NCBI GenBank assembly: GCA_905178155.1
Contig: CAJINV010000010.1
Span: 1,819,182 to 1,883,181 of the forward strand
Origin: Amoebophrya sp. A120
Lineage: Eukaryota > Protista > Dinoflagellata
Reading direction: 5' to 3'
Length of the DNA: 64,000 nucleotides
Positions 577-62,215 of this stretch are shown here, in pieces. The translations under genes were made by a program, and so were the position numbers. The notes under the pieces are model-generated. The model was not told the DNA's origin and searched no databases. It worked only from the letters and a program-made list of their open reading frames with translations. Every line of letters starts with the position of its first letter. Position 1 is the first letter of the stretch.

Positions 577-3500
577 CTACACCTCTACCCTCGCCAATCG
601 CGTATGCCAGCCGTGGGCAGCAAAATACTTCTCCATCAGTTCCTCCGCGGCTGCCTTGTACCCTGAAGCCGCTTTGTCACCACTCAATTTCGCCGCGTGC
701 GCAAGCAACTTCACCTGCAAACGCGAAAACGCAAATTTTTCTTCGTTCATCCCCGGGATCGTATCCAAGAAAAAAAATTGCGTTTGTGAGGCAGAAATGA
801 ATGCAGAACAGAACTACACGACGACGACACTTTTCGTGCAAGACAGCCCCTGCCCCAGACTCCTCTTTTCTTCATCACATGTGGTTACTTTAAAACATAG
901 GCTAGCTACGCTTTTCACAGAACAAGTTTGTCATGCTGTTCTTGCTGTCAGCCCAGTAAGAGCGTTACACTAGCACAGTTCATTTTTCTTGGATAAACGG
1001 GGCCAGGGAAGGTTTTCGGGGGCTTCTGTTCCAGCCAGTGGCCGGGTCTGAAGGACGAAGAAGCTTTCGGCTTTGGCACTTGATGTTGCGCGGAGTTATT
1101 CAGAACGGAGGTGGATGCTGCTGCTGCACCAATACGTCCTCGTGGAGCTGGTGCACCTCCACCACCTGCTGTCGTTCTTGGAACTATCTTGTCGGTGAGC
1201 AAAACATTCCGCAGTATGTCGGGTTGCAAATGCTGTTTCCGGAACCTCCGTGCTTGGTTCAAAAACTTGGTCGGGCGGATTCTCGAGAGAGAGGTAGTGC
1301 TGGCGGAGTTTGCTTTAGTACTATAATTCGTTGTGGAATTTATTTGGTGAAGATGCTGGTCGTGCTGCTCCAGAGCGGGCTCGTGGAGGTGCACGACAAG
1401 GCTGTCGCTGGTGTCACCCTCCACCATCTCCACCGCAAGATGCGCAAAGTCTTCCAGAAACCCGGTAATTCTCGGCACCGGGGTTGCGAAGTACATGTCT
1501 TCAAAGACCCGCTTCGCGTGGATATTGTGGCGACTGATCGAAGGAGTTGTCAGCTCCCCAAGGCTATGCATTTTTGCAAAAGTCCCGCAATCGTAGTGAT
1601 TGCAGTCATGGATGACAGATCTATTTTTGTACGCTAACCAGCAACATTACAAATTCCATTTTTCACGCTGACCAAATTTGTAATGCGAGGATTTGAACTT
1701 CTACTAGTACGATACTTTTGCAGTGGATAAGCTTCGTCCATCTCCAGGTCTAGATGATCCAGAAAAATCTTCCCCTCCGCCCCAAAAATCCCCCGCAGGA
1801 ATCCTTCCGGCAAGAGCCGCAGGGGTAGGAAAAGAAGATGCTTGCGCTTCTCCTGCGTCAGTTTCTGTTTCGCTTTCAGGAGCGTGGCTGTTTTGCCGAT
1901 GTTTGTCATGTCGCCAAACAAGCTGGCTGTGCGTGACGGAGAAGCAGAGTCGTCTTGTTGTGCTGGTCCTTGCTGGTCAATCGTTACCATTTCGGAGATC
2001 GCGGAAGAAGAAAACGGACTTCCCGCCCTCAAGAAATGCTCCTTGTCCTTCCTTGTTGTGTTCCCTATCGCTTTATCAAATGTAAAAATGTCTGGGTGTG
2101 GAAGATTCTGAGCCTTGTCATGCATGTTTTGCATGGGCCGCAATGTCTGTGATGCACGCCCTAGCATCACAGATTTTTTGAGGGCTTCGCGATGCCTATT
2201 CCGCATGACAAATGCCCTCTCCGCGTACCAAAAATTACATTCCCTTTGCTGCTCATGCAATACAGATTTTTTTGGAATCCAAATTCAGCATCACAAGTTG
2301 CATTCTTCCAGACCCAGACATTTTTACATTTGATAGACTTGCGCCAACGACTCTGCTGGATGGGGCTCCAGTAACCTCCGGATGTCGTGTATGAAAGTGC
2401 ACAAATCCCGCCCCCCCTCATTTGTCATGCAAAATCCCAAATGCAGGCTCTGCCTCTTGGCTCTGTTTGCATGACAAGCTCTGGTAGCTCAAATAGCACT
2501 ACACAACTCCAGTGTCAAAAGATTAACATTTGCCATGCAGAACCGAAACTCTTGCTGATGCTTGTATTGCCGTTCATGCTACACAAATGCGGGCGAGGGG
2601 GAGTTGTGCACTGTCACATCGTGCGAGAGGTCTTCCCGATTAACCCCGAGTTTGCTGGTTTGCGAGTCGAAATTCAAGTCCTTGAAGAGCGCCTGAGTCT
2701 TGTTCCCGATGGCGTTTGGATATGAATCCGCAGACGCGTGGTCGTCCTATCGTACTACTAGTAGAAACTGCGATACAAACTTCTTCAGCATTACGAGTTT
2801 GCCATGCTGATTTAGCTTTAAGAAAAAATAATTTTATGATGCATGATTGTGATTCTAGTACGAGTACGATGCCACATAAATTGCTGCGCCGGATATTGGA
2901 ACGCCTTTGCCAAAATGCCGCCCCGGGATCATCACGTAGTCTTCGAGGGCTTTTTCGTGTGTATCCTATGTAAAACAAACGTCCCCACCCCACAGTTGTC
3001 ATGCAGATTTGCATCTACAGGAACATCTGCAATGCGCATCCGCATGAGAGGACTTTGTAGTGATGTTTATGAGATTTGTAATGCTGTGAACAGGATGAGC
3101 ATGCGTCTTTGTGATGCGGCTGTCCTTGACAAGCCCGACTATACTACAGATGGAAACTTGTCATGCATAACTCCCAAAACTTAGAGATTTGTGTTGGAGA
3201 TTTACCAACTTCACTATGGTGTCGGCGGGACGTTTTTTCACAGGATAGTGTGGTTCCCGGTCCAGTGCAAAAACTCCGCTGTCCATGTTTTTCTCCGCTT
3301 GGAATGAGTCGATCACTCGAGCATCACCAGATAGATCACCCGGCGCTTGTCCTGCCCGTAGTCGAGGGCCTGCAATCGCAGTTTGCTCGCTGTAGAGGTC
3401 CTCTGTTGCCCGAATATGATGTCCTCGTGTAGTTTTTAGCGTGACAACTGCACGGTCGCGATCTGGTCGTCCTGACGAAGTTTTTGTTGCAGGGTCTTCT

Positions 3501-6500
3501 GCGTGGTGCGGAACACCAGCAGACTTAGCAAACAAATTCTTGTCGTTCATCCAGAGGAGAGGGCTGGTGGTCCGCTTGTTTATGACCACTTCCCTGGTGG
3601 ATCGTTGTTCATGAGACTGGTCAAGAACTACATCCGTATTTTTCGCATCAGCAACTGCAGGCTCAGCGCCTCTGCTTTTGCTTTTTCCCCCTGCTGGTGT
3701 TCTTGCTGTAGTTGGTGTTGGTTTTATTGCCGCCTCGACGAGGCTGCTTTTTTTGTGGCGATGATGCACTTGGAGCTGCTCCGTACTGGTTCTACTACTT
3801 GTTGTACTTTTTGCAACATCTCCAAACATCAGCTCGGCACCTCGTCCAGCATCTTCTCGTAATCCAAGCAAGTCGGCTTGTGTCAACAAGAAGCTGGTGC
3901 CCCCGTTCTTGCCGGGCGCACCAGATCTTCTCGTAGCTCTAGCTGCACCTCCTCCGGCTACGACGACGCCATCCACAAACCCACGTGATTTAGCTGCAGA
4001 AGAAGAAGTAGGAGAAACAACTCCTGCTCCTCCGAATCGATTGTTTCTACTGTCATCTTCTACTCCACGCGGGTCGTCGTCGTGGTGGAGGTCGAGAAGA
4101 AATTTCTTCTCGACGCGGCTTCTCAACTCCAGACCGCGATCGATCCTGCCTTCCCCGTATGAGTTGCAAAAGTGTCCGGGTCTGGAAGATTCTAAACTTG
4201 TAATGCTGTCTCTGGATTCTAAAAAAAATTGTATTGCATGACAAGCAAGAGGGCTCCAGTTTGTGCTACGCGGAGAGGGCATTTCTCATGCGGTAGAGGC
4301 CTCACAAAGTCCTGTAAATATCTGCGATGCTAGGGAATGCATCACAGACGTCATGGATCATTCAAAATATGCATGACAAAACTCAGAATCTTCCAGACCC
4401 AGACATTTTTGCAGTTGATACTCCGTCTTCGCCTTTCCCTTCCTGTTTCATCACATCGAAGTAGGATTGGTAAGAGCCTGGCTATGCAAGACAAATTTCC
4501 CGCACATGTACAAGATGCATCAAAAATTTCCCCAATTTGGAGCTTGAAGCTTGTCATGCTAAACCAGGATCGAGGCCAAGTTTTGCCATGCAGAAACCGC
4601 ATTTTTACGTGTACAGGAAATTTACTGTGGATACTGGTGTCTTTGGATTGGGCAACCGGATGTCCTCGTCAAAATCGTCGTCGTCTTCAGGTTATGCATT
4701 GCAAAAGTATAATCGTCGTACAACCAGCCGCAATTGCGTTCACGACTTCGCTCAGCACGGGGAATTGCCTACGATGGAACAAATTCATTTCATCTGTCAA
4801 GCATGATTGCAACTCCCACGAGCAGAAGTACGATAAAATTTTGCACAGGATAGCAATACACCTTCTCCTTCTGCGCTTTGCTTGTCGTTGTAGAAAAGCA
4901 GCGGCGTCCCAGCAGCGGCCTTGGCACTTCTGGCGTTCTTGGCGGAAGCGTCGTTCTTGCTCGGTTTGGTATCCTCTACACCGCCTTCCCCGACCAGCAA
5001 CCGCTGCCCGTCTTGGGAAGTAGAGGTAGCACTAACATGATTGCTAGTAGATGATGACTCTAGAAGAAATAACTTCTCGCCGATGATTTTTTGGCTCAGC
5101 TTCCAGTCAAGTTGACTGCCGTTCTGAAAAATCGCGGGCATCTTCAGGTGGTGCGGGTTTTTGTTGGAAGGCAGAGACGAGAAAGAAGCAGATGAAGAAG
5201 CTGTAGTTCTTGATGCGCCACTTTCATGACTGGTCGCGTTCTTATTCCCCGACACGCCACCTTCTAGCCGTTTCAGTAGGTACTTTTTCAAGTGCTCTGA
5301 CATCACAGAGGACAGCCTTCCCAGGCCCCACGTCACAATCGCGCGAAACCACCTGCTCGGGCCCGACTGCACGTAGTCGTGCGGGTTCGGGATAGTTTTG
5401 CTAGCATGGAGTTCTTTTGGAAAGTTGTAGGATAGTTGACGTAGTTGCGTCTGCTCTGATGTATCATCTTCCCGCTGCGAGTTCTTCTCCTCTTCGGGGT
5501 TGATGTTCGAGAAGAGCGAGCTATGTCCAGCCGCATCCACTTCTTGCAACGGCACTTCGACGTCCGCGATGCAGGATTGGAAGTCCAGAAGAAACAACCA
5601 CACCCGCAAAATTTGGAGTGCGTACCAGGCAATCGGGGTGGTTGTTGTGCCAAAGGACGGTGAGTTGATGTCCTCGCCAGGGTCCATTTTTTCGGAAGAT
5701 GAATTTGTCGTACTCGATATAGTTTCCGTGGTATCGTGCCCATATCTTCCAGCGTTTATTTGGCTTTTTTTTTCATCATCGTCGTCGTGCGCCAACCATT
5801 TCTCCAACACAGCCAAAACGTGCAGCTCGACTCTGACGAATTGCAGACAGTAAAACGCCACAACTTCTTATGACAGTGCACAACTCCCCTTCTCCCTCAT
5901 TTGTATAGCATGAACAGCAATACAAGCATCAGCAATAGTGCCGGTTTTGAATGACAAATGTACACTGGAGCGTGGTGCTATTTGAACTACCAAAACTTGT
6001 CACGCAAACAGTGCCACAAGGCAGCGACTGGATTCGGGGTTTTGCATGACAAACGAGGGGAGGGGGAGTTGCGCACTGTCACACTTCTTCCAGCAAGTCT
6101 TCGCATCCGATCTGCAATTCCAACAAAAAACGTTTCTCCAACGTTTCCAGGAGGTCACGAAGACGAAATGGGGAGTGGAAAAGATCATGGGCGGCGGGAT
6201 AATCTGCACCTCGCGACGACGAGGAGGAGGACCGCTGGTCTGCCTGTTTGAAGGGCTCTTTGTTCGGTAGCTTTCGAGCGTACGTATCCAGGCTCCGACG
6301 GCGGCGGGCAGAGGAACTTTCATTAAACAAGCCCCCCTCGGTCAACACCTCCCCACCTTTTTCCTCATCGTCCCGCTCGTCATCTGTGACAAGCAGCGCC
6401 AATATGATACTGCACAACCCCCCCTCCACCTCATTTGGAATGGCACAAATAGCAATACAAGCGTCAGCAAGAATGCAGGTTTTGCATAACAAATTCATTC

Positions 6501-7497
6501 ACTCACATTTGTACTGCTGTTTGAGCTGCAGCCAGAACTTGTCATGCAAAAAGTGCCAGGAGGCAAAGGATGCATTTGGTACTTTGCATGACAAACGACG
6601 GGATGAGGGGAGCAGGTTGTGCACTCTCATAGCCAACACAGAGTTGAGCAAAGCCAGCCGATCCTCGACGGAGTGGGCCTCCGTGTGGTACTTCTTCGTG
6701 TATTCCAAGGCGTAGTGGAGATGCTCGGTCGGGAAATCTGCCTCCACGCCGAAGCCCCGCTTCTTCGCGATGTTCGCCCTGATTCTAGCCGCAACCGCGT
6801 GCACGTCCAGGGCCGGCGCGGATGATGAAGAAGAAGTTCTTCGCCTCGCAGGTGCGGAAATAAATCCGCACCTCTCGTGGACTTGAGACGTCACGTCAAT
6901 GTGGTCACGACTGGTGATATGCATTGCAAAAGCATCGTACTAGTATAAATAACTGCATCACAAATTATATTTTCCTCAAGAACAAATAGGGAATTTGTCA
7001 TGCTATATCAGGTGGAAAGTATAGATTTGTCATGTATGACGAGTGCGATACTTTTGCAATGCATAGGCGAGCAAAGTTGCTGATGTTCTCATTCCCGTTT
7101 GCAGCTGGCCTCCGCGTGTTTTCTTTCCTGCCGACAACTGCGGACGAGAGAAGACGTCAAGGAAAAGTGTTTCGGCGTTGAGAGTGTCATCACCTTCACC
7201 GCCCCATCGACCTACTAGTAGAACTGGGTCAAGAACAGGAGCATCGCCGAGAGCAGGAGCAGCCCCTTCGATTCCCATATTCGTTCCCGCCGATGTTCCT
7301 GCTACGTCGTGGAGCCGCCCGAGCACTACTTCGCGGAGCCTCCTTTCCAACCTTGCTTCGCGCTGCTGGTCAAATATTGGGCCGGGATGGTGTAGGAGAT
7401 GCCACGCACCAGCATATTTGCTCCCGCCCCCGCCCGCTGCGTGATGCCGTTCTTCTTCTGGTTCGAACTTGAACAGTGCGGGCCCGAAAAAGTTCAC
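577..7497 (-). CDS. Large low-complexity hypothetical protein, 13 exons split by 12 introner introns
   Basis: All 12 junctions join in frame when element+5 nt is removed; stop at 577. No ATG at the 5' end, so it is probably continuous with 7862-9272 via GT-AG intron(s) (GTAAGT donor at 7920, TAG acceptor at 7509). Confidence 0.75.
762..995. mobile_element. Introner (singleton family)
   Basis: TIR TATCCAAGAAAAA/TTTTTCTTGGATA; TSD decayed; frame restored. Confidence 0.75.
1565..1729. mobile_element. Introner family B
   Basis: TIR TAT..TGCAAAAGT; TSD decayed; frame restored. Confidence 0.75.
2074..2335. mobile_element. Introner family A
   Basis: TIR TATCAAATGTAAAAATGTCTGGGT; TSD CGCTT/GACTT. 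Confidence 0.9.
2390..2618. mobile_element. Introner family C
   Basis: TATGAAAGTGCACAA...TTGTGCACTGTCACA; perfect TSD TCGTG. Confidence 0.9.
2721..2895. mobile_element. Introner family B (degenerate)
   Basis: TAT...ATA ends; perfect TSD TTGGA. Confidence 0.8.
2962..3247. mobile_element. Introner family D
   Basis: TATCCT..AAACGTCCC TIR; perfect TSD GTGTG. Confidence 0.9.
4158..4420. mobile_element. Introner family A
   Basis: Family A TIR; TSD CCCCG/CTCCG. Confidence 0.9.
4483..4633. mobile_element. Introner (singleton family)
   Basis: TAT..AAATTTCC imperfect TIR; TSD CTGGC/CTGGT; frame restored. Confidence 0.75.
4693..4852. mobile_element. Introner family B
   Basis: TATGCATTGCAAAAGTAT...GCACAGGATA; TSD decayed; frame restored. 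Confidence 0.8.
5869..6083. mobile_element. Introner family C
   Basis: Family C TIR with ACA end; perfect TSD CTTCT. Confidence 0.9.
6403..6631. mobile_element. Introner family C
   Basis: Family C TIR; perfect TSD GCCAA. Confidence 0.9.
6918..7065. mobile_element. Introner family B
   Basis: TIR TATGCATTGCAAAAG; TSD GGTGA/GGCGA. Confidence 0.9.
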
Positions 7498-7861
7498 CCA
7501 CCAAGCGTCTATACTGATGAAAAGAATAAAGTGCCCACTTCTATTTTAGGGCCGGAAACAAATTTAGTACTTAAAAAACATGTGTAGAAGTTGCGGCCTT
7601 GATCCGTGTGGCATCAGCACGAGCCAGGTCTTCGTCTTTTATTTTTTGTCTTTGATCCTTGTCCAGCATGACAAACGTTTTGTTTTTGATGGTTCCGACC
7701 TCCCTAATCTTGTTCGAACAAGCTTCTACCCTTCATCGTTTTTACGAACTGCAGTAATCTACATGGAATAGCCGAAAAACTGCTGCTCTTGTTGCTGTGT
7801 AGCCCGCGTTCACACAGAGCATTCTCCGACGCCAACTGGAACTGACACTGAGCAACATGCA

Positions 7862-9272
7862 CTATTCATGCACTATTGATAGATAATTTGTTCTCCTGAT
7901 TGTTGTATGGGTGCACTTACTTTTGTGTCGGATAGCGTTGATACGTCGAAGAAAGTCTGCCTGGGTTATAAACATGCTTCTTGTCATCTCCTCCTCCTGC
8001 TCGAGAAAGTCACTGGGTGGGGCGTCGTCGGGAAAAATTGCATCTTCATCGGTGGAAATCTGCCCCCCGTGCCGCTTCTGGCTGTTTGATATTTCCCGTT
8101 GATGCAGCTTGTTCTGCTCCTGGCCGCTGGTGTTACCAACCACTCGAGCAGGTGGCAACGCCCTCATTTTTCCAGTTTTCGTACTAGTTTCCTTGGTCTT
8201 CAAGAAGACGACCTTTCGGCACAGGACGCTGCAGAGGGCGCGTATGGATGTGTCAGAGTTGAAATCGACAAAGTTGAAATAATTTGTCATGCATAAAATG
8301 GATGCCAGTTGGGACCCAGTTTCCAAGTCAGGCAAGACAAATTTCGGTGGTCCCTAAGTCCACTTTGTCATGCTGTTTAGGCAAAGAAGAGCGATTCTCT
8401 CATGCTACTTTAGCAGCTCGAGCTGTAACCCCAAACAGGCTTACAATCGGCCTCACTTGCCTGCTCTGCAACACACGTGCCTCAGGTCATGCATTTTATG
8501 CATTACAAATTATTTCAACTTTCACGATTTCAAACCTGACACTTCCATAGCGCGTGGTAGGAAGTCCTGGATATTAAATTGCGGGGTTAGCTGGTGTATC
8601 CTGTGCAAAAGTATCGTATTCGTATAAATGCAAGTCTTGCATTACAAATCTTTGTCTTAAGGCAAATCTGCATTACAAATTTTCTTTCTCATGCTGAAGA
8701 AATTTGTAATGCATTTATACGAGTACGATACTTTTGCAATTCATATGGTGGAGCGAAGAAGTAGAGTTTGTCATTGTCTTCTGTCCCGGCGAATAAGAAG
8801 AAGTTGAAATAAACAACGCTCGCGGCGACCAAACGTGTCGGTCCAGATTCAAGCAAAGCTTTTCCGCGTGGGAAAACGTGAACACCGTGCCATATCAAAT
8901 GCAAATGTGTCTGGGTCTGGAGGACGATGGCGAGACTTGTCATGCAGGCTTTCCATGGCCCATGAGGTCTGGCATAGAGCATCTAGCATGACAGATTCTG
9001 TGAGATCTCTATCATGCCTCTCCCGTGTGAGAAACTGCCTCTATACTTGTTCAGAAGCGGACAACTTTTATTGCTGACCATCAAAGAACGCAAATTTTTG
9101 CACGATCCAGACTTGGCACGACAAGTTGCAACCTTCCAGACCCAGACATAGAATTTGTAATGCATATCCCACCACCCACAGCCAAATCCCAGAGCTGCAA
9201 TTTCTCTTCCGGAAGCAGGGGCCGGCCGATGGCCGCCTGGAGCGAAGCGTGACGGGAAGACGAGAAAGACAT
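7862..9272 (-). CDS. Hypothetical protein (MSFSSSRHASLQ...), 3 introner introns; probably the 5' part of the 577-7497 gene
   Basis: ATG at 9272; removing the three elements +5 nt gives one continuous frame (..AVGGGTVFTFSHAEK..LTPQFNIQDFLPRALCSVLCRK..). Confidence 0.7.
8243..8549. mobile_element. Introner family F (diverged)
   Basis: TIR TATGGAWGTGTCAG; perfect TSD GCGCG. Confidence 0.9.
8597..8745. mobile_element. Introner family B
   Basis: TATCCTGTGCAAAAGTATCG; perfect TSD TGGTG. Confidence 0.92.
8893..9166. mobile_element. Introner family A
   Basis: Family A TIR; TSD TGCCA/TCCCA. Confidence 0.9.
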
Positions 9273-10530
9273 GTTTTTTCAGAATGACGGCCCGTCTAGC
9301 TGTAAGAATAAGTAGACAGTTCTGGTGGAGAGATCCTGTTCTTCAAGGCCACACTTGTTGATGATGAAGATGAAGATGGTGCTCAATATAATTACAACAG
9401 TGGTCGTCACAACTACTACTTCATCGTCACATCGACGTGAATCTCCTCGTTCATCGCTATCACTGCACTCTACCACATACGAAAAACAAGACCGTGAGGC
9501 GCTCGTGAAGGGCATGGTGGTACAGTAGGTCGTCCCAACGGTAGGTACTAACAATAGAGCGGCAACCATTACGACATCACCATAACAAGACACATTATGT
9601 GTCTTGTTATGGTGACATCAACAACTACTACACACGACGGCCAACTCCTCCCATGCATCACTAGCCACCTCCCGCCCACATCACAACTGGCTATTTATTC
9701 TTTTTTTTATCTGCTAGTGGCATGTGTGTCCTCTCTCGCAACACAAATATAGACTTCTAGAGTGGCTGTAGCACGACCAGTTTTCTGCGAAGCAAAAGTG
9801 CCAACTGACGACCTCGACCTGGTGACGGTGACCGTGACATGCTATACAATCGGGGGAAAATACTTCATCACCGAACGTTTTATACGTAAACGTAGAAAAC
9901 TGTTGATAAGGGACATTATCTTGCTCTTGCTCAGCGACCGCGACGACATAATTTCAACAGGAGTCTTCATCTGACAACAGAATGACGACCACGGAAATCT
10001 TCTTGCTGAACACAAATACAGAAAAACCCTGCGTCGAATCTGGGTCGGCTCGTTTGCTTTTCCAGCACCCGTACCTGACGAAGCAAGCTCCTAGGGCCAG
10101 AGAAGCACGTCTTCACCATCTATCATGATGGTCAAAGCAACTTTTTCAATATTTGTGTCGCGTGGTACAAAGTGATTCTTGTGAAAAAAGGAATGCAAAT
10201 TATATCATCGGTTTTTTCTCCAGAGGGAGCCCCCGCGGGGGGTGGGCGATCTAAGTAGCACTATCACGACAACGAACGTGTGTGTCCACCAGAAGGCCTC
10301 CGTAATTTTGCTCCTCTTTATTTTGCAGTTGTCGTGGCTTATTGTAATTGTTCCCAACACTTCTCACAGCGTGGTAGTTTCATCCTCACAGGAGTGTGGG
10401 CTTTCTTCTCCCGAATTCTGGTAGTTCCTCGAGCAGTATTGTTGTATTTCGCGGAGTAAGTAGTCTCAATAAGCAGTAGTCCTCGTTGCAAAAAATTGTT
10501 GAATCCGCTCTGTTTATTTGCTCAAAATCT

Positions 10531-11702
10531 TCAAATCCGCCCGCCGTCTTGTCGCTGGGTCGTCGACGGAAAGCCGCCGCCTGTCTGTTCTACCGCAACG
10601 TCAATCAAGTCGTCGTCGTGCACGACTATGCAGTGCAAATATGTAGTCTCAGTAGTCACTTGTGGAAGATGAAGCAAGCAGATGGTTGCCATGACCACAT
10701 CGACTTCTCTCGTCGAGGATGTTTGTAATACATGGCATCTCCTAGCATCAAAGATCTTCTTCCACCGAAGGCTTGTTTTAATCTCTTTTTTAATGCGTAC
10801 TATCCGGGTCGTGCATGAGAAACGCGCCTTCCATGTTGCAGAAGCCAGGCTGTTTCTGTATCTCTTGCTGACACAAGAATACAGATTTTTGGCATTGTCC
10901 AAAGCTAGCATCACAAGTTGAAGTTTGCTCTCATCTTCCAGCACCAGATTATACATTTGCATTGCATAAAGCCGAGCGCATCCGGGGTGTCGTTTTCGCC
11001 CACCCGCTCCCCATCGACCATAAAACGCACCTCGCCAATGCGCAGGCTATGAGACTGCACAACCAGTTTACCTCTTCCTCCGTTGTCATGCAGAAACGCA
11101 ATGATGTATGACGATTTTTTCGTAAGTACCCGGCGGCTACGTGCTGTTTGTCATGCAGATGCTATATACTGAACTGATACTGATTCTGTCTGTGTTTCGC
11201 TTGTTCGTGCCTGCTTCTTCAGATGACATCTTGATGGTTTGAGGGGAGAGATGAAACTACTTCTACTTGTGCACTTTCATAGGTGCCGATCCGCTGGCAG
11301 TAGGCCTCCATCAGTTTTTTCAAAGTCGAATGCTTCTTGATCTTGAAGGACACTTCACCGCCCGTACTGTTCCGCACCCGCAGCTTATGAGAGTGCACAA
11401 CTCCACCTTCTCCTGATTTGTATTGCATGAACAGCAATACAAACACGAGCACACGTGGAGCCTGTGGATGACGAATTGACATTATTCGTGCGCCTAGTGT
11501 AGTACTGTCTGGGGTTGTTCCGGATGCAAAGAATACAACAAGGAAGCACTTGGATTTGGGCTTTTGCATGACAAATGATGCGGAGGGGGACGAGTTGTGC
11601 ACTCCCATACAGCTGAATGTGCGTGGGCCCGCCGGCGCCAGCGTCCGGGTTTTCCGGGGCGGCGGCCGCCGCGGGAGAACCAGAGTCCTGGTCGTCGGCC
11701 AT
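10531..11702 (-). CDS. SUMO: Small ubiquitin-like modifier (SUMO), 4 exons
   Basis: Spliced product ..HIQLRVRNSTGGEVSFKIKKHSTLKKLMEAYCQRIG..RIGEVRFMVDGERVGENDTPDALG..DDDLIDVAVEQTGG matches SUMO/Smt3 motifs including QTGG. Confidence 0.93.
10627..10968. mobile_element. Introner family A (degenerate), SUMO intron 3
   Basis: TATGCARTGCAAAT TIR; TSD decayed; SUMO frame restored. Confidence 0.8.
11048..11281. mobile_element. Introner family C (degenerate), SUMO intron 2
   Basis: TATGARA.TGCACAA TIR; TSD partly decayed; SUMO frame restored. Confidence 0.8.
11386..11609. mobile_element. Introner family C, SUMO intron 1
   Basis: Family C TIR; perfect TSD CAGCT. Confidence 0.92.
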
Positions 11703-25946: not shown

Positions 25947-28900
25947 TCATTCCTGCGGCGGCGGCCCGGGTTTCTCCGGTTCCGGTGGCGCTTCCGGTTC
26001 CCCGACCTCAGGTGTATGAACTGCAAAAGTATCGCACTCGTATAAATGCATTACAAACTTCCCCAGCATGAGAAAGAAAATTTGTCATGCGGATTTACCT
26101 TAGAAAAAAACTTTGTAATGCAAGACTTGCATTTATACGAGTACGATACTTTTGCACAGGATAAGGTGGTGGCGGCGGCAAATCTTGGGTCCAGTTGTCC
26201 GCAGCCCCTTTGGGGACGGAGGGCTTTTTGTACCCACCGGCGTTGTATCAACTGCAAAAGTGTCTGGGTCTGGAAGATTGCAACTCGTCATGCTAAATCT
26301 GAAGCATGCAAAAATCTGTGTTGCATGATTACCAAACGTCGCCCAGTTTTGACCAAGTCGGGAGGGAGTTTCTCATGCAGGATAGGCATGAGAGAGATCG
26401 CGCAGAATCTGTCATGCTAGGTCCTGCATTCCAGACCTCCTGGGTCATGGAAAAGCTGCATGACAAAGCGCGCATTCTTCCAGACCCAGACATTTACATT
26501 TGATACGTTGAAGGAGATCTGCTTCACGTTCGTTTCCGGCATGTTGCTCCCCGCGACAAAGTATGGATTGCAAAACAAGTATCGCACTCGTATAAACGCA
26601 TTACTCAGCATGAGACTTGAAATTTGTAATGCGGATTTACCTTTAAGAAAAAAATTTGTATTGCATGATTGCCATTACTACGAGTACGATATTTTTGCAG
26701 TGCATACAAAGACCGGCTCGAAATTTTGCCACTGGGGGTTGTGCTTCTCCAGCAACAATTCCTCGTCCAATCCAGCTCCATTTTTATTCTGTGCCTCGAA
26801 CGAGTTGCTCCCGTACAATTTCCGCTTTTGTAAAACCCGTTTCCGCTGTCTTTCCGCCGCGATGCGCGCACCGTGGCTCGCCTGGCACATATCGTACGAA
26901 AAAAGTGTTACAGTTACACCTTTGTAGTGGATTCTGCAACACAAACTTGCTCTGCACTGCAGAGAAAACTTGCAATGCAGAGATCCTGAAGGAAAACACG
27001 CACAAAACGAGGCTCGCATGCCTCTCCAGCATGAGAGAGGCTGTCTGTCTTGCTTGGTCTGCAACACAATGTGTAACTGTAGCACTTTTTTCCTTGCATA
27101 ACACATCGCTTGGAACACGTTACCCGGGATCACATGCTTCGCGGTTTGTCGTATTGCGAGGGAAAATCCCCCCTCCCCAACATATTGCAAAGGACATTTG
27201 TGATGCTGGATTTGCGTACACAAATCGACTTGTATTGCTAGAAGGCCGAAAGACGCACTCGTGGCCTGAATTGCAGGCGATTTGTCATGCTGTTTACCGA
27301 CTTCCAGTTGCCTCCTGTCATGCTGAAGACGCAAGGCTGTCCCGCGCCAGCCAGCACAACAGTCGTCCGCACCTTTTGCTTTCTAGCATGACAACATGAT
27401 TTGCAGTAGCAAATCATGCTACACAAATGCCCGTTTTAGTGTGGGGAGGGGGAATTTTTCACTTCGATATGTCTATCCCCGTTTGTCATATCATCGTCTA
27501 GCTCGTAGAGAAACGCCACGTTCGCCAATGCTTTCTGGTTTGCCAACTTCCCACTTGCCGGGACGACGAATTTCACGAAACCCGCGGCGGAATAGCGGTA
27601 CAAAACCCCCCGTCGGCTGGTTTTTCCCTTGCCCGGCGCTAGGTTCAAGGCCTGCTCGATCTGCTGATAGGTCCGGTCGACGATTTTCGGGTCACAAATA
27701 ATTCCGTACACCTCCATGATATCTTTTTCGATGATATCACAGGAAAAAGCGTCAACGCTAACGGGATTTGTGATGCAGGACCGCATCAAAAAAGGTGCCT
27801 CCTAAATTTGTATTGCATAGCATGCGTTACAGGAAACATTTGTCATGCATAGCTGCAAACTCTGGAAACCGTTAAGGTTAACACTTTTTTGTTTGATAGA
27901 TGATCTTCCTGATCCCACGGGCGTGCGTGCGAAATTTCCCGCACATCTTGAACCAGCGGTAGCAGCCCGGGGCGCGGGTGATGGCGATCAGCTGGGAGAA
28001 AATTTCGGTCAGCACTGGTTTCAGGTTTCCCTGCTGCTTCTGCAGTTGAAACGAGGGATTTTGCTTCATCACGGTCATCATGGCACGGAGGGTGGATAAA
28101 TGCACCAAATTCGCTTCAGCCGACTTGTCATCCGTCGAGTCGATGCAGACAAACATTTCCTGCACGAAATTCGACACCAAGGCTTCGATCAGAACCGGTT
28201 GTAGATCCGGTTTGTCCTTCAGTAATTGCAACGCAATCTCCGGGTGGAGAGCCTTCGCGACCCCATACTGCATGGACATTTTGTCCCACCCTCCGTTTCG
28301 CTGCACTTCCTTCTCGACGTGCTTGTGCTCGAATTGCCCCAATTGCACGCAGTTGCTATCCGGCACCATGTGGAAGACCTTCGCCCGTTGCAATTTGTCG
28401 CAAAAAGCGGGTTTTTTCATGGAAAAGACCCGCAGCTCCCCGGTAAACCACTGGGACCCGCAGCCGCCCTGCTTCACCTTCGTCAACAACGGCTGGTGGT
28501 TGGACGGGTCGTGGCGCAGCTGCTTCAACTCGGACCGGTGCGCTGTCGGTAGGGCGTCGACGGCAACGATGGTGTAGGTGAGATTCGAGAAGTGGTTGTA
28601 GAGGTAATCTTCCAACTTCTTCGCCTCTTCCAAAAGAAACGACGACCGCTCGTGGTAGCTGGGCTGCTTGTTCGCGGCACAGCAGGACTGGGAAATCTCA
28701 ATTTCGATCGCTTCATATTCCTGCATCGGATCTAAGTGTTCCTCGTTCCAATAAGGCGCGTATGGATTGCAAATATGTCTGGGTCTGTAATGCTAAAAGT
28801 GAATCATAGACGCACTGCAATACGCAGCTATGCATGACAAATAATTTGGCTGCCATGTGGTCTTACGTATTCCGCATGGCAAACTACGTTTTTGCATGAC

Positions 28901-31900
28901 AGGCAAGAGGACTTTTTCGTGCCTATGCAGCACAGATTCTCGTCGAGCCATGCCAGACAAGCATGACAAACTTGCACTCTCCCAGACCCAGACATTTTTG
29001 CATTTGATAGAGCACTCAGCATGTTGATTTGGGAGGCGGTTTGATCTGAGGTCTTGTTGTTCAAACTGGAGACGAACCGCATCTGGCTGCCGCGAGCCTC
29101 AATCACAGATGAGTTATGTGTTCCATACATTGTCACTGCAGTTGCAAAATTTCCCGTGGTCGCACCGTAATTGATATTTGGGTTGTTGTTAACATTTGGC
29201 GCTCGCGCTCCTCCTACGTGGTCAAGCATCACCAAATACACTCCTTCAATCGGCGCCATTCTGTCTTCGCCACTGCTTTGACCCGAAACGTTGCCCTGCA
29301 CACGCAAAAACCGCTGCACAACACCCGTCTTCTGCTGCCCACCGCCGACATTCACAAGCACTTTATCCCCTCGGCGGAACACGTTTTTGCGTTCCTTCTG
29401 GTAGTGCTTTATCGAGCTGTAGGACTTCGTCCTGACCGCGTTTTCCAAGTTCCCGAAGGTGGAAGACACGTTGTGTCTCAACGCCGTCAGCGACGGGCGG
29501 TCCTGGAACGGCTGACTGCTCTTTTTGTCGGACACGATCAAATAACTAGGCCCTCCTGCAGGTCTACTACTGGAGAGATCTACGCTGGAGGGTAACGTGG
29601 CGCCAGTACCTCGCGAGGACGCTACTGCTCCTGCTCCACTGCCCGGTTGGTAGCACCGCACAGCGGACCCCTGTACCGCAAGGTCGGAGGGTGCGGCGAA
29701 CTTATTCCGGTCGATCTCGAATTCCCGGTCCAAAACGACGATGAGCGACCCGGGGAGGAAGTCCCCAACCGTCGGCTCTTTCTTGAACAAAGGGTTAGTT
29801 GCGTCGCCGACGTTGTTGTTCAGGTTGCTATCTACTTCCATGCCCTCGACCCCGGTGTTGAAATCCTTGATCCTATCCGCTGGGGAAAAGGACCCGTAGC
29901 GGGAAACCGAGTAAACGCTCGTCACCAAACCGAATTCCACGGCGAGGAGCTTCATCCACAGATCGAATTCGTATTGGGTGGTGGAACTGGAAGTTACCAG
30001 AATTGCCTGCGTGTACTTGGTCGGGAGAAAGGTCGGCTCGTATAACAGTGCACAACTCCCCCTCCTCCTCATTTGCATGGCATGAACAGCAATACAAAGG
30101 CCTGCACACTTGGAGCCTATGCATGAGAAATTTATGTCACGTGGTGTAGTACTGTTTGGGCTTCCGGAGTTTGTCATGCAAACCGTGCCACAGGGAAGCA
30201 CTCGGATTTGGGGTTTTGCATGACAAACGAGGGGGAGGGGGAGTTGATGTGCCCTTTCATAGCTCGCACCGCAAGTTCATCATCCTCTTCTGAATCAGCC
30301 GCCACGACTTCTGGTACAAATCTTCCAAATAGATATGCGCCCGCAGCTCCCCATACGCGTACGCGGGGACGGATTTCGAAAGCTTGATTTTCAACTTCAG
30401 CGTCGACAGCGACTGGTTCGGCTGGATCATGGGGACCACGAAGAAAACCCCGTCACTGATACCGTCATTCAACGGCGCCATCTCCGGTGCGTTGCAGTGC
30501 TGGTATAAAACGTTCTGCGCTGATGTGATGTTCTTTTCGTTCGACAGGTCGAGTAACACTTCTCCCTTCTCCGCATCGTAGAAAACGACCTGATTTGGGA
30601 ACTCCTGGTCGGGTTTGTCCTGTGGGAAAATGGTGTCGGTCTTGTTGTTATGCATTGCAAAAGTATCGTACTAGTATGAATTGCAATACAAATTTCCTCA
30701 GCATGAGAAATGAAATTTGTAATGCGGATTTAACTTGAGAAAGAAATTTGTAATGCATGAATGGGATTACTACGAGGACGATATTTTTGCACAGGATAGT
30801 TGTCTTTCGCCGTTTGGTCCGTTTCCTTTTCGTTGTTCAGACTGTGATTCGCTAACTTGTGGCCGAGAAAGCTAAAGCCGATATTTCCGTTGTGGATCGT
30901 CGTGTTTTTCGCCAAAAACACCTTCACGCCGATCTGCCGCCCGCCTAAGGCGAAGCCCATCGGGAGAGAGGAGATGTTTTTCAACGGGAATTGAATCACG
31001 GTCGACTCCCCCGCGGCCAGGCTGTTCAAACCAAGAAACCCGTTTGCGTTCTGCAGGGGGAACTGGACTGTCATGAGCTGGATGGAAGATTCTTGAAACT
31101 GGTCGAAGTTCTTCTGGTACTTCGTACTCTGGCTGTGATAGTTATCCGTTTCGATGCCCAACTGCCTCCCTTGTAATTTCACCTCTTCCTGAACTATCGC
31201 CGGGTCGAAGTCCGAATTATCCAGTTTGTCCATTTCTATCATTCCGATTTGGTACCGCAGTTCGCCGTCCACGGACACGGCGGTGTTGCTGTCAATCGCC
31301 ATACCCCGCACGGTGAAAACCGCATCCTGGACGGATTGCTCGTTCGCCCCGGCGAGAACCCACTTCCCGGGGATCAACTGCATCATCTGCCGCTGCATGC
31401 TCGGGGTCGGCATTCCCCCGACATTTTTCACCGAGATGTTGTCGACGAAACAGCACTATGGATTGCAAATATGTCTGGGTCTGGAAGATGCCATGCTGTT
31501 TTTGCATGACACAGAAGGTCTGGCATGGTATCCCTAGCTGCATCACAGATTCTATTAAGAAGGTCCTGCAATGCATAGTCCGCATGACAAATCCCGCACT
31601 TTGGTGACAAGAAGTGGGCATGATCTTTTGCTGCCTATGCATGAGAGATTTTTCTTTGTTCTGAAATGCGCATCACAAGTTCGGATCCTTCCAGACCCAG
31701 TAGACATTTTTGCAATCCATAAGCACTGGCCAAACTCGAACACGTTGTCCGGTAAAGTTTGCTATCCTGTGCAAAAGTACTCGCATTGCAATGATGCATT
31801 ACAAATTTTTTTCTTCAGGTAAATCCGCATTACAAATTTTACTTCTCATGCTGAGAAAATTTGTAATGCATTTATACGAGTGCGATACTTTTGCAATGCA

Positions 31901-36962: not shown

Positions 36963-39900
36963 TTAGCTTCCCGCGACCTGGGACGTGGATACCTCCTCGA
37001 CGGCCGGGATGTCGACCGGGGCCGCTACTGGTGCGACGGATACCACCTCCTTTCCCGCCGTGCTCGTAGTAGTACTCGTTTTCTCATCATACAAATCCAC
37101 CGCGCGATTTACCGTAGACAGCGTCTTTCCGTTCAGGTATTTCGCGTCCAGTGACTTCCCCGTGTCGATGGCCTTACTCACACCAGTCTGCAGGTTGGAG
37201 CCGAACCTGGTGATGTAGTATTGGGAATGGAGATGTAGATTAATATCGTTATTCATGACGATATTCGCATGTTGAAGTAGAAGTCTTCAGGTTCAGATGC
37301 AGGGCAGGTAATTGCCAGCCAGCATCCAGTTTTAGTGATAGTGTAGTTTGTTCTATGCATGACAAACTCGTGGCAAAAACAAAACTCAGTACTTCTTGTC
37401 ATCCAGTTCCTTGGCCTTTTCCAGCAAGACTTTGCCCATCTCCAACACGCTTGGAAACTTCCTCTCCGCAAATTTGGCCGTCCCCACCGAGGTGGAGACC
37501 ACAGTGGACAAAGCTGTCTCTTGCACGGCGGCGACGGTGATCTTTGTGTAAACTTCGTTGAACTGCTTGATCACCTGCTCCGGGAGTTTGCCCTCCGTTA
37601 TCTCCTTACCTGATAAAAAGGTTTTATTTTGGGTTCAATATGTTTGTCATGCTGCTCCTGCAGCATGTGCATCGCATGATAAGGTCCTGTGATGCAAGAC
37701 AAATTCTCGCAGCACAAGCACCACATTGACATTCTGATAATTCTCAACAAAAACACAAATTCTATACGTAATCCGTTAATGGCCGTGAACGTCTGCAGGT
37801 AGAGTTCTTTCAGCGTTTCCTTTCCCTCCGTCAATTTCTTGCCGAGTTTTTCGGTGTCAATCAACTTCTCGAGCAACTCCACGACTTTCGCGAACTTTTC
37901 CGTGATCATCTTCCCCTTCTCGGTCTCCTTGAAATCCGCAATGGCGGTGGCAATTTGCACTTTCAACTGCGCCAGGGCCTGCTTCGCGTCCTGTAGGTTG
38001 ACGCTGACCTTTGAGGCCGTGGATGTGTAGTAACTGACCGCGAGCTGCTTGTTTTTCGTGAAAATCTCCTCGATTTGCGACTTCAGGAGGTTTATCAACT
38101 GCAAAAGTGTCTGGGTCTGGAAGAGTCATGCTGTTTTTGCATGACAAAAAAGGTCTGGCGCGGAAGCTCTAGCATCACAGGGCTCGAGAAGCTTCCACAA
38201 TGCCGAATCCGCATGCCAAATCCCCTATTTTGGTGACAAAAAGTGGGCAACTTTTGCTGCCTACTTATGCATGAGATATTTTTCTGTGTTCTGGAATGCG
38301 CATCACAAGTTTGTACTCTTCCAGACCCAGACATTTTTGCATTTGATAATGTTCAGCTTCTCCAGGAGCTGCTTCTGTTGCTCCGGGGTCAGGATTTTCG
38401 AAAATTTGTCCTTCAGCTCGATGTTCTTGATCACTTCCAGCGACTCGAGGTAGTAGGTCTTCAGGTTGATAACCTGTTTGTCCTTGTAGGTAGCCAGTTC
38501 GGATTTCAGGTCCAGGACTTTCTGCTTCGACGCCTCGATGGAAGCGAGGAGCTGGTCTTTACCTGGAGGCGTTTATGAGTTATTTCGTATTGCATTTCCT
38601 TTTTCCAGGATGGAGTCTAGCACGACAACGACTTGATGACTGTGTTGACAAAACTGCACGACAAAGTTTTTCACGGACGTCATTCAGCATGACAAACTTT
38701 ATTGTGCAAAGCATTTTACTACCTTCACTGGTCGTTTTTTTCACTGTTTCCGAAACCTCCTTCAACCCCGTCAAAGCCTTGTCCAGCACATATCATCTCC
38801 AAAAGTATCGCACTCGTAGTAATTGCAGTCATGCATTACAAATTTTTTTCTGAAGGTAAATCCGCATGACAAATTATATTTCTCATGCTGAGGAAATTTG
38901 TCATGCATTTATACGAATACGATATTACTTTTGCAGTTCATAGCACCGCGTTTGCCAAAATTCGCTCCTGCATCGAATGCAAATGTGTCTACCTCTGGAA
39001 GTAGAGTGCAGCAAGGTTTGTCATGCACATTTTGCATGACCTTTGATGTCTGTGATGTATGCCCCGGCATCACAGATAATTCATTTCCGAAATTTTTTTT
39101 ATTCCTGATGCCTGTACCGCATGAGAAATTGAAATGCCGCCTCCGCGTAGCAAAAACTTCGCTCCTGTTGCTGATCACGCAATACAGATTTTTACATCAT
39201 CCAAGGGCAGCATCACAAGTTCAAGCTGCAACCTTGTTCCAGAGCCAGACATATTTGCAATGCATATCCTGCATCTCCACCAGTTTCTTCTTTCCCTCTT
39301 CGATTTTCAGCAAAAAAACTTCCTTCTTCCCCTCGAATTCCGTGTACTCCTTGTATGAGAGTGCACAACTCCCCCTCCCCCTCATTTGTCATGCAAAACC
39401 GCAAATCCATTTGCTGCCCTGTGGCACTGTTTGCATGACAAATTTCGGAAAGCCAAACAGTATTACCTTCGGCCGGTCGTGAACTTGTCATGCGAAGGCT
39501 CCAGGAGTGCTGGCGTTTGTATTGCTGTTCATGCCATACAAATGAGGGGGAGGGAGAATTTTGCACTTTCATACCTTGACCTGCGAGACCACCTCGGTCA
39601 GGGACTTCTCGCACAGCTGGTATTTTTCCGAGATCTGCTCCAAAGATTTCGTTTTTAAATCCTCTTTGATAGAAGTAATGTCCTCGATCGCCTTCTCCGT
39701 TTTTTCTTGCAGCTTGGTTCCCGTGGTGGACGCGGTGTGATTCAGTTTCTCCTGCATTTCCTTGAGCTGCGCGAGGGTTTTTTCCAGGTCGATGTAGTCA
39801 CTGAGTTTGGACTGCACGGTTTGCAAGTACGACTGGGCGCCGGACAGCTTGGAAAGGAAATCGGCGCTCAGCTTGGAATCTGATAATTTATCTTTGTTGT

Positions 39901-40923
39901 ATTACAAACGAAAAACGAGTCGCAAAAGTAGGACGACGTTGAGGACCTTAGCACAGTAAGGCTCTCGCGGTCATCCATTGAAGTAGTCAATCTAGCCACG
40001 ACACAATTCGTCACTCTATTTCGAGTATGTCATGCAAGAAGAAATCATGGTGTAGTTGAAACATATTAACAGAAGTAGAACATCATCATCAGCCGGATGA
40101 AGTGGCCCATTCTAGTCGAATTCTAGTACCTTTGTAGTGCTTCTCGACCTCCTCTTTCAGGTGCGCGATGTGCTGCCACGTGTTTTCAAACCCCTTGCGG
40201 ACCGCTTCGGAGTTTGCGTTTTCTTTGAGGCGGACCTGCAACTCTTGGATCGACACGGTTACCTGATAGAGTTATGTACAGTATGCGTGACTTTGTCATG
40301 CGCAATCAGTATCAAAAACAACATTTCTGATGCACCTTTGCTGACACAACAAAATATCGTCGTTAAAGAAGTAAATATACCTTCTTCGCCACATCTTTGA
40401 CACTTTGCTTCACCGATTCCCCCTCCAGCTCCTGCACTGCCGTCAGAGCCGCGTTCAGATGCTCGGTCAAAAACCCAGCATACTTTTTCGCGTAGGATGC
40501 CATGGTGCTGGATGTAGAAGTTGTTGTGCTAGACGGAGATGAAGTACTATTAGTATTTGCCGTGCTAGCCGCGCAAGAGACTGCTTCTTCGTCCTCCTGT
40601 AGTACTAGGAAATCTTGTTGTTCTTGCGAAGTAGATCTCTGTGTGAATCGCGAACTTTCGTGCGCGACCGCGATTCTTTGCCAAATACTTGACGCGGGCA
40701 GTGTTTGTTCCGGCGAAGAAGAGAGGGCGTCTCCTTGTTCTGGAACGACGGTTGTAGCAGAAGCGGAACCAGTGCCGACGCCTAGATCTTGTTGCAGTTG
40801 TTCCCTAACAACGTTGCTACTAGCCTCAACTTCTGTAGTACTAGAAGCTCCTTTATTTCCTGTGCTACTATTGGAAACCTTCTCGGTTGTACCGGTAGTT
40901 GTATCAGACCCCATCATAGCCAC
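36963..40923 (-). CDS. Lys/Glu-rich helical (coiled-coil/amphipathic) hypothetical protein, multi-exon
   Basis: Exon ORFs joined through 4 introners, 4 GT-AG introns and one degenerate intron (~37222-37388); start could be 40923 or 40503. Confidence 0.75.
37610..37767 (-). other. GT-AG intron, apparently introner-derived
   Basis: AC|GTA-TAG...ATC-AG|GTA; internal TGTCATGC/TGTGATGC motifs; frame preserved. Confidence 0.75.
38093..38348. mobile_element. Introner family A
   Basis: TSD AGGTT/ATGTT. Confidence 0.9.
38563..38722 (-). other. GT-AG intron flanked by AGGTA direct repeat
   Basis: AG|GTA...CCAG|GTA; GCATGACA inside; frame preserved. Confidence 0.75.
38791..38942. mobile_element. Introner family B
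   Basis: TSD GCACA/GCACC. Confidence 0.9.
38971..39266. mobile_element. Introner family A (CAT variant end)
   Basis: Perfect TSD TCCTG. Confidence 0.88.
39354..39573. mobile_element. Introner family C
   Basis: Perfect TSD CCTTG. Confidence 0.92.
39880..40129 (-). other. GT-AG intron
   Basis: G|GTACTA...TTATCAG|AT; frame preserved. Confidence 0.7.
40263..40380 (-). other. GT-AG intron, apparently introner-derived
   Basis: AG|GTA-TAT...ATC-AG|GTA; perfect AGGTA repeat; TGTCATGC inside. Confidence 0.8.
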
Positions 40924-41663
40924 GCAGGATTTATTTTAGCACACAGAATTGTCACAATTGGAAGAGAAGTCAGTCCCCTTCTACAAAAACTTACACAAAT
41001 ACTACACTCTTCTCGGAAATAAATTTGTTTCGTCACAACGTTATCATGTAAAAAATGTCGCTTCTCTCAGAACTCTTGCCGTTTTGATGGTTAAAATGTA
41101 AATGTAGTTGTTCTACACTCAATTTATTCCATTCATGTTATTTTCACTGAATTTTGTGAAGACATCAGAAAGCAAAAACATTGAGATGAGCAATACTATG
41201 CCATCCCATGGTGAAGACACCATCATCAATACACAGGAGTTATGAATCTCCCTCCGAAGAGATAGTCGGACCTTCAAGTGAAGTGAGATGATTTTCATCC
41301 AAGATTTGTGACAAATCGAACAAAATTTCAACCGATGCTGTGAAGATTTGTGCTTTAACCGACACGACTTGTTGGAACAAATAGATCCGCGATTTTCCTT
41401 CATTTTGACGAAATTACTGCTCATTTGAAATAAGGATTTCGTTGCCAGCACTGCGATATGATCAGATTTCTGCTGCAAGAGTTGCCGTTTCACGTCAGAA
41501 GTAGGTCCACGATTCTTGCTCGTCCTCGTTGCAGCAATTTGACAACTTGAGTCCTGTCCGGGGACCTGTATACTCGACACAAGGAGCACGTCGACGCATG
41601 GTAAAGTTGAAATTCGTTGTCCAGCACCAGCGTCCGATGTTGTTGAAGCTGTTGCTCCTGCGG

Positions 41664-61033: not shown

Positions 61034-62215
61034 TCACGCCCCAGTTCTCTGCTGCGTCGTCGCTCCCCCGCCACCTCCGCTACTTTGATTCGCCACGTTC
61101 AGATACGGTGTGGGGTCGAATTTGTCCGGGGAAAAATTGGTGCAGTACTCGTTAATGCCGAACATTTTGATCACTTTTTCCAGAATGTACGGGTTCCGAT
61201 GGTCGCTACTCTTCATGACCGCGTCGTTAAAGTGCTTGCCCTGGGCTTTCAGCGCGAAAAACTTTTCTACCCTTTCCTGTAATTGCGGGTCCGGCGACCC
61301 TGGCGGGGAGGGGGGAAGCTTGATGTGGTCTAAATTATCGATGTAGTTTTCTACTTCCTGCTGTTCGTCCAGAGTGGTCTGGTGCGGGTCTACTACGGCA
61401 AAGGATGCAGCAGCAAGTTTTTGTCGCTTGTGCGAAGGCGTGTTTTCTACTACCGACGGCGGTGGTGGTTGACCTCCCCCTCCTGCAGCATGAGTAGTAG
61501 AGCCGTTTTGATTGAAACTTTTAGCACTCTTGCTGGTGCCTGTAGCTGCGCCATTACTTCTTGTGGTATTAATATTTTTTCCTCCTTTAGCATGTGGTGA
61601 AACACCCTCGTCGCTGTTTTCGGACTCTGGGGAGCGGATCAAGTCTTCCCGGGGAAGATCCCGCTGTTGTCGCTTTAAGTTGTTCATATCGGCCGTCGCG
61701 TTACTAGCCGTACTACGACCACTCGGCGGTGCACCAGCTGCCAGAGTACTAGGCTGCCGCGCAGCAGGAGGAGCAGCCTGCTCTTCTTCCTCCTCTTCTT
61801 CTGGTGTCATGACCACCACTTGCTGCATATGAAAGCCTCAGGTTGGAAATCCTCAAATTGGAAATAATTTGTAATGCAAAAAACGACTCCAGTTGAAGCG
61901 CCATTTGTAGTCGGCGCATGACAAATTTCCCGGGCGCTCAAAACGTGTCTGTCATGCTAGTTAGGCAAAGGGGTAGCCTTCTCTCGTGCTAATCAGCACT
62001 CCAATTCTTAACCCGTAGCAGGACAATAGTCGGCTTCCATTGCACCCTCTGCAATACAGTCTTTTTTGCGTCGCATTTCATGCATCACAAATTATTTCCA
62101 CGTTGAGGATTTCCATTCTGAGGCTTTCATACTGCATCGCTTCTTTGGTCAGGGGCTTGAGCTTCGGGTGCTTCTCCACCTTGTCGCTCTTTTCTTCGTC
62201 GCTGGACCAGTCCAT
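61034..62215 (-). CDS. HCNGP / SAP30-binding protein-like, 2 exons
   Basis: LPPSPPG..LQERVEKF...HFN......HRNPYILEKVI..FGINEYCTNF....FDP is the HCNGP signature; exon 1 MDWSSDEE. Confidence 0.85.
61828..62131. mobile_element. Introner family F
   Basis: TIR TATGAAAGCCTCAG..TGGAAATCCTCAA; perfect TSD CTGCA. Confidence 0.93.

Follow-up and report, generated by a model that had tools for sequence, protein, structure and literature searches.

Where does the border lie of an intron that consists of a mobile element standing between two copies of a short target duplication? The question is raised by a SUMO gene of Amoebophrya sp. A120, which is split by three TAT...ATA elements and lies in the 64-kb stretch of DNA analyzed here (64,000 nt, the window). 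More than 60% of Amoebophrya introns lack GT-AG, U1 is undetected, and the text of PMC7789003 left the intron borders undefined. An earlier note, made from the sequence alone, had placed the cut after position 2 of the duplication. In the contigs described below the cut falls after position 4, and this window gives good support to the rule that an intron consists of 1 nt + element + 4 nt.

Elements and their target duplications

Three segments of the window are 100% identical to proteins annotated for Amoebophrya sp. A120, and with the repeated elements taken out every long reading frame is on the minus strand. Terminal inverted repeats were sought by a scan and curated by hand, which yielded a catalogue of 56 TAT...ATA inverted-repeat elements, each between two 5-nt copies. 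A 57th element, which starts at 63829 and overruns the window end (63829-64000), was excluded from all counts. The elements are 115-342 nt long, have no coding capacity, and include families of 13, 11, 6 and 5 copies. Read on the coding strand, 53 of the 56 have TAT at the 5' end and 54 have ATA at the 3' end, and the termini are complementary at a mean of 9.7 of 12 letters at zero offset. The mean identity of the flanks is 0.87 at length 5 versus 0.21-0.31 at lengths 2-4 and 6-10. The corresponding values in a metagenome sample are 0.90 versus 0.23-0.34 at other lengths (n=116 elements, paired up from 131 loci bearing one of the ends). The duplication is a constant 5 nt, far above chance. Terminal inverted repeats, a target site duplication (TSD) of constant length, short size and lack of coding capacity are features of MITEs, or non-autonomous DNA transposons.

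The elements are the known Amoebophrya introners of Farhat et al. 2021 (PMC7789003), with which they share the TAT-starting inverted repeats, the non-canonical ends, the removal in RNA and the short direct repeats spanning the exon borders. Direct repeats of 3-5 nt and no clear splice signature were reported there, whereas the repeats of the window have the constant length of 5 nt.

The two flanking copies are perfect in 34 of the 56 elements and mismatched in 22, the latter being the number that the earlier note had counted. The mismatches are concentrated: the first 12 kb (762-11609), with 18 elements, hold 22 of them, versus 13 in the other 38 elements, a cluster that may reflect older insertions or faster local change.

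One metagenome assembly contains at least 131 loci (L001-L131) that share an identical 20-nt element end and have 5-nt duplications; it probably represents a related strain sharing the element family. The window exons were matched by none of these 131 loci, and the exact SUMO exon pattern had no match in the metagenome contigs. Of some 3 million reads in each of the raw RNA runs X8 and X9, 5 and 2, respectively, were placed on the window; those at 2086-2502 match element sequence only and have foreign flanks, which suggests another strain with the same element family as their source.

Splice register in SUMO and in the other split genes

Joints were read from contigs of the runs X1, X2 and X4, which are presumed to be RNA. 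For X1 this status is inferred, its contigs being regarded as spliced mRNA because GT-AG introns are removed from them. Elements + 5 nt together with GT-AG introns account to the base for the lengths of two X1 contigs; of these introns, the first contig lacks five (118+250+160+158+186 = 872 nt) and the second two (153+251 = 404 nt). The stretch compared with the contigs amounts to 32.5 of the 64 kb and covers 18 of the 22 mismatched elements, of which 9 have listed joints; the elements at 53921, 55250, 58513 and 63456 lie outside the covered stretch, and those at 31763, 38093, 38791, 46422, 1565, 4483, 6918 and 8893 have no joint among those listed. Registers are written as the number of nucleotides of the upstream copy plus the number of the downstream copy that are kept in mRNA, 4+1 thus denoting 4 nt and 1 nt, respectively. 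The features are summarized in Table 1.

Table 1. Coordinates of the SUMO gene, its duplication copies, and further element-containing and GT-AG introns of the window. The fourth column gives the number of upstream nucleotides that the joint allows to be kept.
Feature	Position	Strand	Upstream nt	Remarks
SUMO gene	10531..11702	minus		4 exons (11702-11611, 11381-11283, 11043-10970, 10622-10531); 118 aa spliced
SUMO intron 1	11382..11610	minus		Element 11386-11609 + 5 nt; joint 11380>11610, 5 ambiguous letters
SUMO intron 2	11044..11282	minus	4	1 nt + element 11048-11281 + 4 nt, 239 nt, ends CT..CT; exact register; joint 11043>11283, zero ambiguity, in contigs of X1 and X4
SUMO intron 3	10623..10969	minus	4 or 5	1 nt + element 10627-10968 + 4 nt, 347 nt, ends TT..CG; 4+1 or 5+0; joint 10621>10969, 1 ambiguous letter, in contigs of X1 and X4
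Intron 2 upstream copy GCACC	11282..11286	minus		First 4 nt retained in mRNA
Intron 2 downstream copy GCCTG	11043..11047	minus		Last nt alone retained in mRNA
Intron 3 upstream copy GGCTT	10969..10973	minus		At least the first 4 nt retained
Intron 3 downstream copy GTCGT	10622..10626	minus		At most the last nt retained
Intron around element 762-995	758..996	minus	3 or 4	3+2 or 4+1; joint 757>997 in X4
Intron around element 2074-2335	2070..2336	minus	4	Exact 4+1, AAGTC/AAGCG; joint 2069>2337 in X1, X4
Intron around element 4158-4420	4154..4421	minus	4 or 5	4+1 or 5+0; family of 2074-2335, opposite orientation
Intron around element 4693-4852	4689..4853	minus	4	Exact 4+1, ATTGC/ACCTG; joint 4688>4854, X4 only
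Intron around element 26890-27100	26886..27101	minus	0-4	5+0 excluded; joint 26885>27102 in X1, X2, X4
Intron around element 27152-27469	27148..27470	minus	1-5	0+5 excluded; joint 27146>27470 in X1, X2, X4
Intron around element 28761-29009	28757..29010	minus	4 or 5	4+1 or 5+0; joint 28755>29010 in X1, X2, X4
Element 39354-39573, repeat CAAGG	39350..39574	minus		Sole element of 56 reading GT...AG under 4+1
AG|GTA-flanked GT-AG intron	40263..40380	minus		No terminal inverted repeat
AG|GTA-flanked GT-AG intron	38563..38722	minus		No terminal inverted repeat

Exon 2 of the SUMO gene matches Pfam Rad60-SLD (E 1.5e-6). On the coding strand, the elements of introns 1 to 3 are flanked by AGCTG/AGCTG, GCACC/GCCTG and GGCTT/GTCGT, which confirms the two diverged pairs given in the earlier note. 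The repeat of intron 1 is perfect and its register is therefore not resolvable; its exon borders are assumed from the common register. At junction 2, the six registers translate to L (0-2 upstream nt kept), M (3) or T (4-5), and over the six registers of junction 3 the residues are VV, GV or GL. A choice among these residues by eye is unsafe, and RNA was used instead. The mRNA retains GCAC + G at junction 2, which is exactly 4+1, and GGCT + T (4+1 or 5+0) at junction 3, and the spliced protein of the RNA contigs reads QRIG-T-RIGEV and ALG-L-HDDD, with the same T and L in the public annotated A120 SUMO protein. Judged against RNA, the residues that had earlier been taken as most SUMO-like do not hold, since T replaces L at junction 2 and L replaces V at junction 3. 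The public SUMO model (P0003) begins within intron 1 and lacks exon 1 (11702-11611), whereas the RNA contigs splice intron 1. In X1, an unspliced contig has a depth of 45.7 at intron 2 (11044-11282) versus 74.2 for the joint, and of 6.8 at intron 3 versus 117, a hint that intron 2 is removed more slowly, contig depth being a poor measure.

All 14 listed element joints, 5 of them at perfect repeats, skip the element + 5 nt. The 9 informative ones fit 4+1 in 9/9 cases, 5+0 in 4/9, 3+2 in 3/9, 2+3 in 2/9, 1+4 in 2/9, and 0+5 in 1/9. Three of them, at elements 2074, 4693 and 11048, are exactly 4+1 with zero ambiguity. Under a uniformly random register, the chance of such agreement at 9 joints is 4e-5. 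Element 4693-4852 is cut at 4+1 despite mismatches at 4 of its 5 repeat letters; the joint comes from a single contig of depth 3.8, and the annotated residues LE agree with it. At element 41807-42012, where contig ends lie at 42013, 4+1 is allowed and 2+3 excluded, and the same is true of the annotated protein P0004 at elements 1565-1729 and 6918-7065. P0004 equals the 4+1 model at 12/12 junctions; the annotated proteins are not independent evidence, because they are possibly based on the same RNA data. Pairs of the same family in opposite orientation (2074/4158 and 1565/6918) keep the register of the coding strand and not its mirror image.

The register follows the direction of transcription and ignores both repeat identity and GT/AG. 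As the earlier note had supposed, it is fixed and lies inside the TSD: the three unambiguous joints keep parts of both copies, and across the mismatched TSDs (9 listed joints) the mRNA neither kept one whole copy nor showed variable registers. Its place was mistaken there, being 4+1 and not 2+3. The intron very probably consists of 1 nt + element + 4 nt in one fixed register. The evidence comes from one window of one strain with all genes on one strand, several joints are flagged 'between: not known', and minor registers are possible, because 9 of the 22 mismatched elements have a listed joint and contigs drop rare forms.

Probable recognition of the element ends

Under 4+1, 14 of the 56 elements start with GT, 5 end with AG, and a single one does both; under 2+3, canonical GY/AG ends are found in 0/56. 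T occupies intron position +2 in 56/56 elements and A position +3 in 54/56, and each of the 7 GT-AG introns defined in the window starts with GTA. Positions +1, -2 and -1 are free in the elements. No base bias was found at +1 or -1, nor in their pairing, over the 56 elements, nor do the 35 mismatches show that the repeat copies inside the introns were selected for GT or AG. The downstream base is a purine in 28/56 elements, without preference.

The AG|GTA-flanked introns, which had been cited as independent support for the 2+3 cut, do exist (40380-40263 and 38722-38563), but they differ from the elements. Their best 12-nt end complementarity, with all offsets tried, is 7 and 5, respectively, versus the element mean of 9.7. 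Both are flanked by AGGTA on either side (ACGTA/AGGTA at 37767-37610), and since the mRNA is identical whatever the register when a repeat is perfect, they are uninformative on the register of the elements.

Three of the 7 GT-AG introns (40380-40263, 40129-39880 and 37767-37610, minus strand) end with TATCAG and contain a GCATGAC motif of the kind usually seen inside elements; possibly they are introners that have decayed and acquired canonical ends. A GCA[TA]NACA motif occurs inside unrelated element families in both orientations and also at 40301, 37652, 32790, 37357 and 38687. Its copies frequently lie at intervals of about 32 nt and at some 40 nt from an element end, and it is possibly a transposase-binding or splicing signal. 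As a branch-point candidate it lies 32-174 nt from the 3' end, is absent in 9/56 elements and is equally frequent antisense. The motif scan of the 56 elements thus gave no clear branch point whose distance is constant, and 0 Rfam matches to snRNA were obtained within the 64-kb window.

We propose that the register is fixed, that the cuts are measured from the element ends, and, with a probability of about 0.55, that the organism's own spliceosome, with relaxed end recognition, makes them. Each element would be excised together with 1 nt before and 4 nt after it, so that the two copies leave just one 5-nt target behind, 4 nt of it from the upstream copy and 1 nt from the downstream one. The places of the cuts are likely set by distance from the conserved TAT...ATA ends, since the register ignores repeat identity, leaves +1, -2 and -1 free and follows transcription. 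The first letters of the element would serve as intron positions +2 to +4 (N-TAT in place of GTA-), the first intron letter being free; both ends might be juxtaposed by pairing or by an end-reading protein, and the 3' cut would be placed by distance, 4 nt beyond ATA. T at +2 and A at +3, as in the GTA introns, point to a spliceosome that accepts N-TA at the 5' site, the chance that TA lands there by coincidence being about 1 in 6. In Table S4 of PMC7789003, which is open to aligner bias, all 9 predominant non-canonical types of A120 start with N-T, and all 9 of A25, whose repeat starts with TTA, start with TT. The same paper reported 83 of 89 spliceosomal proteins plus U2, U4, U5 and U6 in A120; U1 was not found in Amoebophrya. 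As 1 + 4 nt equals the 5-nt duplication, a new insertion would leave the protein unchanged wherever in an exon it falls and whichever way it is oriented, which would explain how the elements could spread.

The same fixed register could instead be the work of a separate system outside the spliceosome that recognizes the paired ends, such as a structure-guided nuclease with a ligase, a close rival to which we assign a somewhat lower probability. In its favor, neither GT nor AG is needed, 1 of 56 elements being canonical, and the ends are symmetric; a terminal stem is predicted with a pair probability of at least 0.5 in 38/56 elements. It would also fit the precedent of Euglena, in which paired motifs are set off by fixed spacers of 3 nt and 5-6 nt and for whose introns the authors of PMC12501133 favor non-spliceosomal factors, as well as the lack of a clear branch point and the undetected U1 (PMC7789003). 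Against it, the TA of the element falls exactly on the spliceosomal positions +2/+3. The elements 4693-4852, at exactly 4+1, and 26890-27100 are both removed as element + 5 nt despite a predicted terminal pairing of 0.0, which argues against a pure equilibrium hairpin ruler. The TATCAG ends of 3/7 GT-AG introns put TA at -6/-5, as in the elements, and suggest a continuum (p ~0.007, small sample). Whole-intron folding gave z values of -0.37 for SUMO intron 2 and -4.67 for intron 3, a signal not common to both. In a more far-reaching form, a ruler code N1-TAT...ATA-N4, matched to the 5-nt duplication and blind to GT and AG, on tens of thousands of introns would be read by a dedicated non-spliceosomal machine of independent origin, convergent with the N3/N5 of Euglena, and insertions would be silent; we regard this as doubtful.

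Improbable by comparison is a register that varies, or is guided by the match of the two copies, with 4+1 merely the commonest outcome. The legends of Fig. 3 and Fig. S23 in PMC7789003 call the splice sites variable relative to the hairpin, rare forms are lost in contigs, and 13 of the 22 mismatched elements have no listed joint. Most of the published variability is nevertheless expected, because mapping crosses perfect repeats (34/56 in the window). No second joint is listed at any of the 14 elements (threshold 5 in 100), including those of SUMO at contig depths of 38-117, and the place of the cut stays the same where 3-4 of the 5 repeat letters differ.

It is very improbable that the joints are an artefact of reverse transcription, through template switching at a hairpin between direct repeats, or the result of excision at the DNA level, even though the RNA status of X1, X2 and X4 is presumed. 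Reverse-transcriptase jumping requires matching repeats, yet joints are present at repeats that share 1-2 of 5 letters. Removal of the elements restores open reading frames of 1463 and 1333 aa, which span 12 and 13 elements, respectively, as well as SUMO, which is otherwise broken by stops, and the GT-AG introns are missing from the same contigs. The DNA-like run X5 has an even cover of about 45 outside repeats and is continuous through the elements over 39733-46291; none of 4 element joints, those at 26890, 27152 and 28761 included, was found in X5 among the joints counted, zeroes not being full proof. A hairpin with short direct repeats is a known setting for such artefacts (PMC8240250).

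The intron of 3 nt + element + 2 nt can be dismissed: the 2+3 register, which is that of the AG|GTA-flanked GT-AG introns by definition, fits 2 of the 9 informative joints, both nearly uninformative, is excluded at the other 7 (both SUMO junctions and 5 more), and is contradicted by the annotated proteins at 7/7 junctions with a register-dependent residue.

Related intron systems and other sequences of the window

The elements are already known, and their fixed register is apparently new, no fixed rule having been found in print. PMC7789003 describes the splice sites as 'variable' relative to the hairpin and the border as 'unknown', whereas the cut is fixed in the window at 1 nt before and 4 nt after the element. 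Its text and legends give no Amoebophrya register; its figures 3, 4b and S19-S23 may show 4+1 as the mode. No such register was found in the accessible portions of PMC12130899, PMC9860276, PMC11282704, PMC11453091 and 10.1101/2024.09.05.611473, subscription journals being mostly outside the search. Apart from PMC7789003, the literature located comprises reviews, genome-wide surveys of introners and one preprint about a different strain.

The nonconventional introns of euglenids, a lineage unrelated to Amoebophrya, likewise have no GT-AG (Nomura et al. 2025, PMC12501133). Their terminal motifs are paired, a pairing that is predicted with a probability of at least 0.5 in 38/56 of the elements and near 0 in some spliced ones. 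Like the elements, they have a short fixed 5' spacer, a longer 3' one, flanking direct repeats and a probable MITE origin. The code of Euglena is N3-CDG...CHG-N5-6 followed by a purine (PMC12501133), in contrast to N1-TAT...ATA-N4 without purine preference here. Amoebophrya is unmentioned in the main text of that paper.

In the introners of Micromonas, Aureococcus, Symbiodinium and Florenciella, an element with terminal inverted repeats is removed along with TSD sequence and one target copy is left, the cut often falling within the TSD as it does here (Gozashti et al. 2022, PMC9860276; PMC11282704). These introners carry or co-opt GY and AG, which limits the insertion sites from which they can be spliced (PMC9860276, PMC11282704), whereas the A120 elements carry only the T of the 5' site and use no AG. 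The introns of Fritillaria borealis are also MITE-derived, with terminal inverted repeats and TSD, and are removed by a changed U2 spliceosome; they prefer the end dinucleotides AG-AC and AG-AT (PMC11282704, PMC7789003), whereas +1, -2 and -1 are free in the elements.

With a fixed rule of 1 nt + element + 4 nt, the apparent 'diverse splice sites' become one code, and re-annotation of about 30,000 introner borders becomes feasible. The rule accounts for why an insertion would be tolerated irrespective of its site and orientation, and makes Amoebophrya, after Euglena, a second lineage whose splice code is defined by spacers. It points to positions for mutation and to where lariats or circles could be sought, and so makes the Amoebophrya splicing puzzle directly testable.

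Among 13 long frames of the window tested, 10 had no Pfam match. Neighboring genes at 41667-44411, 61037-61837 and 30733-31455 (minus strand) match 2OG-Fe(II) oxygenase, HCNGP and DUF7932, respectively. At 21874-22392, short repeats of the CCCGTAAATT type, found in either orientation, make up an array that forms a large inverted structure and is not a TAT...ATA element. A palindrome with perfect 19-nt arms and a 1-nt loop is located downstream of SUMO, in the spacer at 9577-9615.
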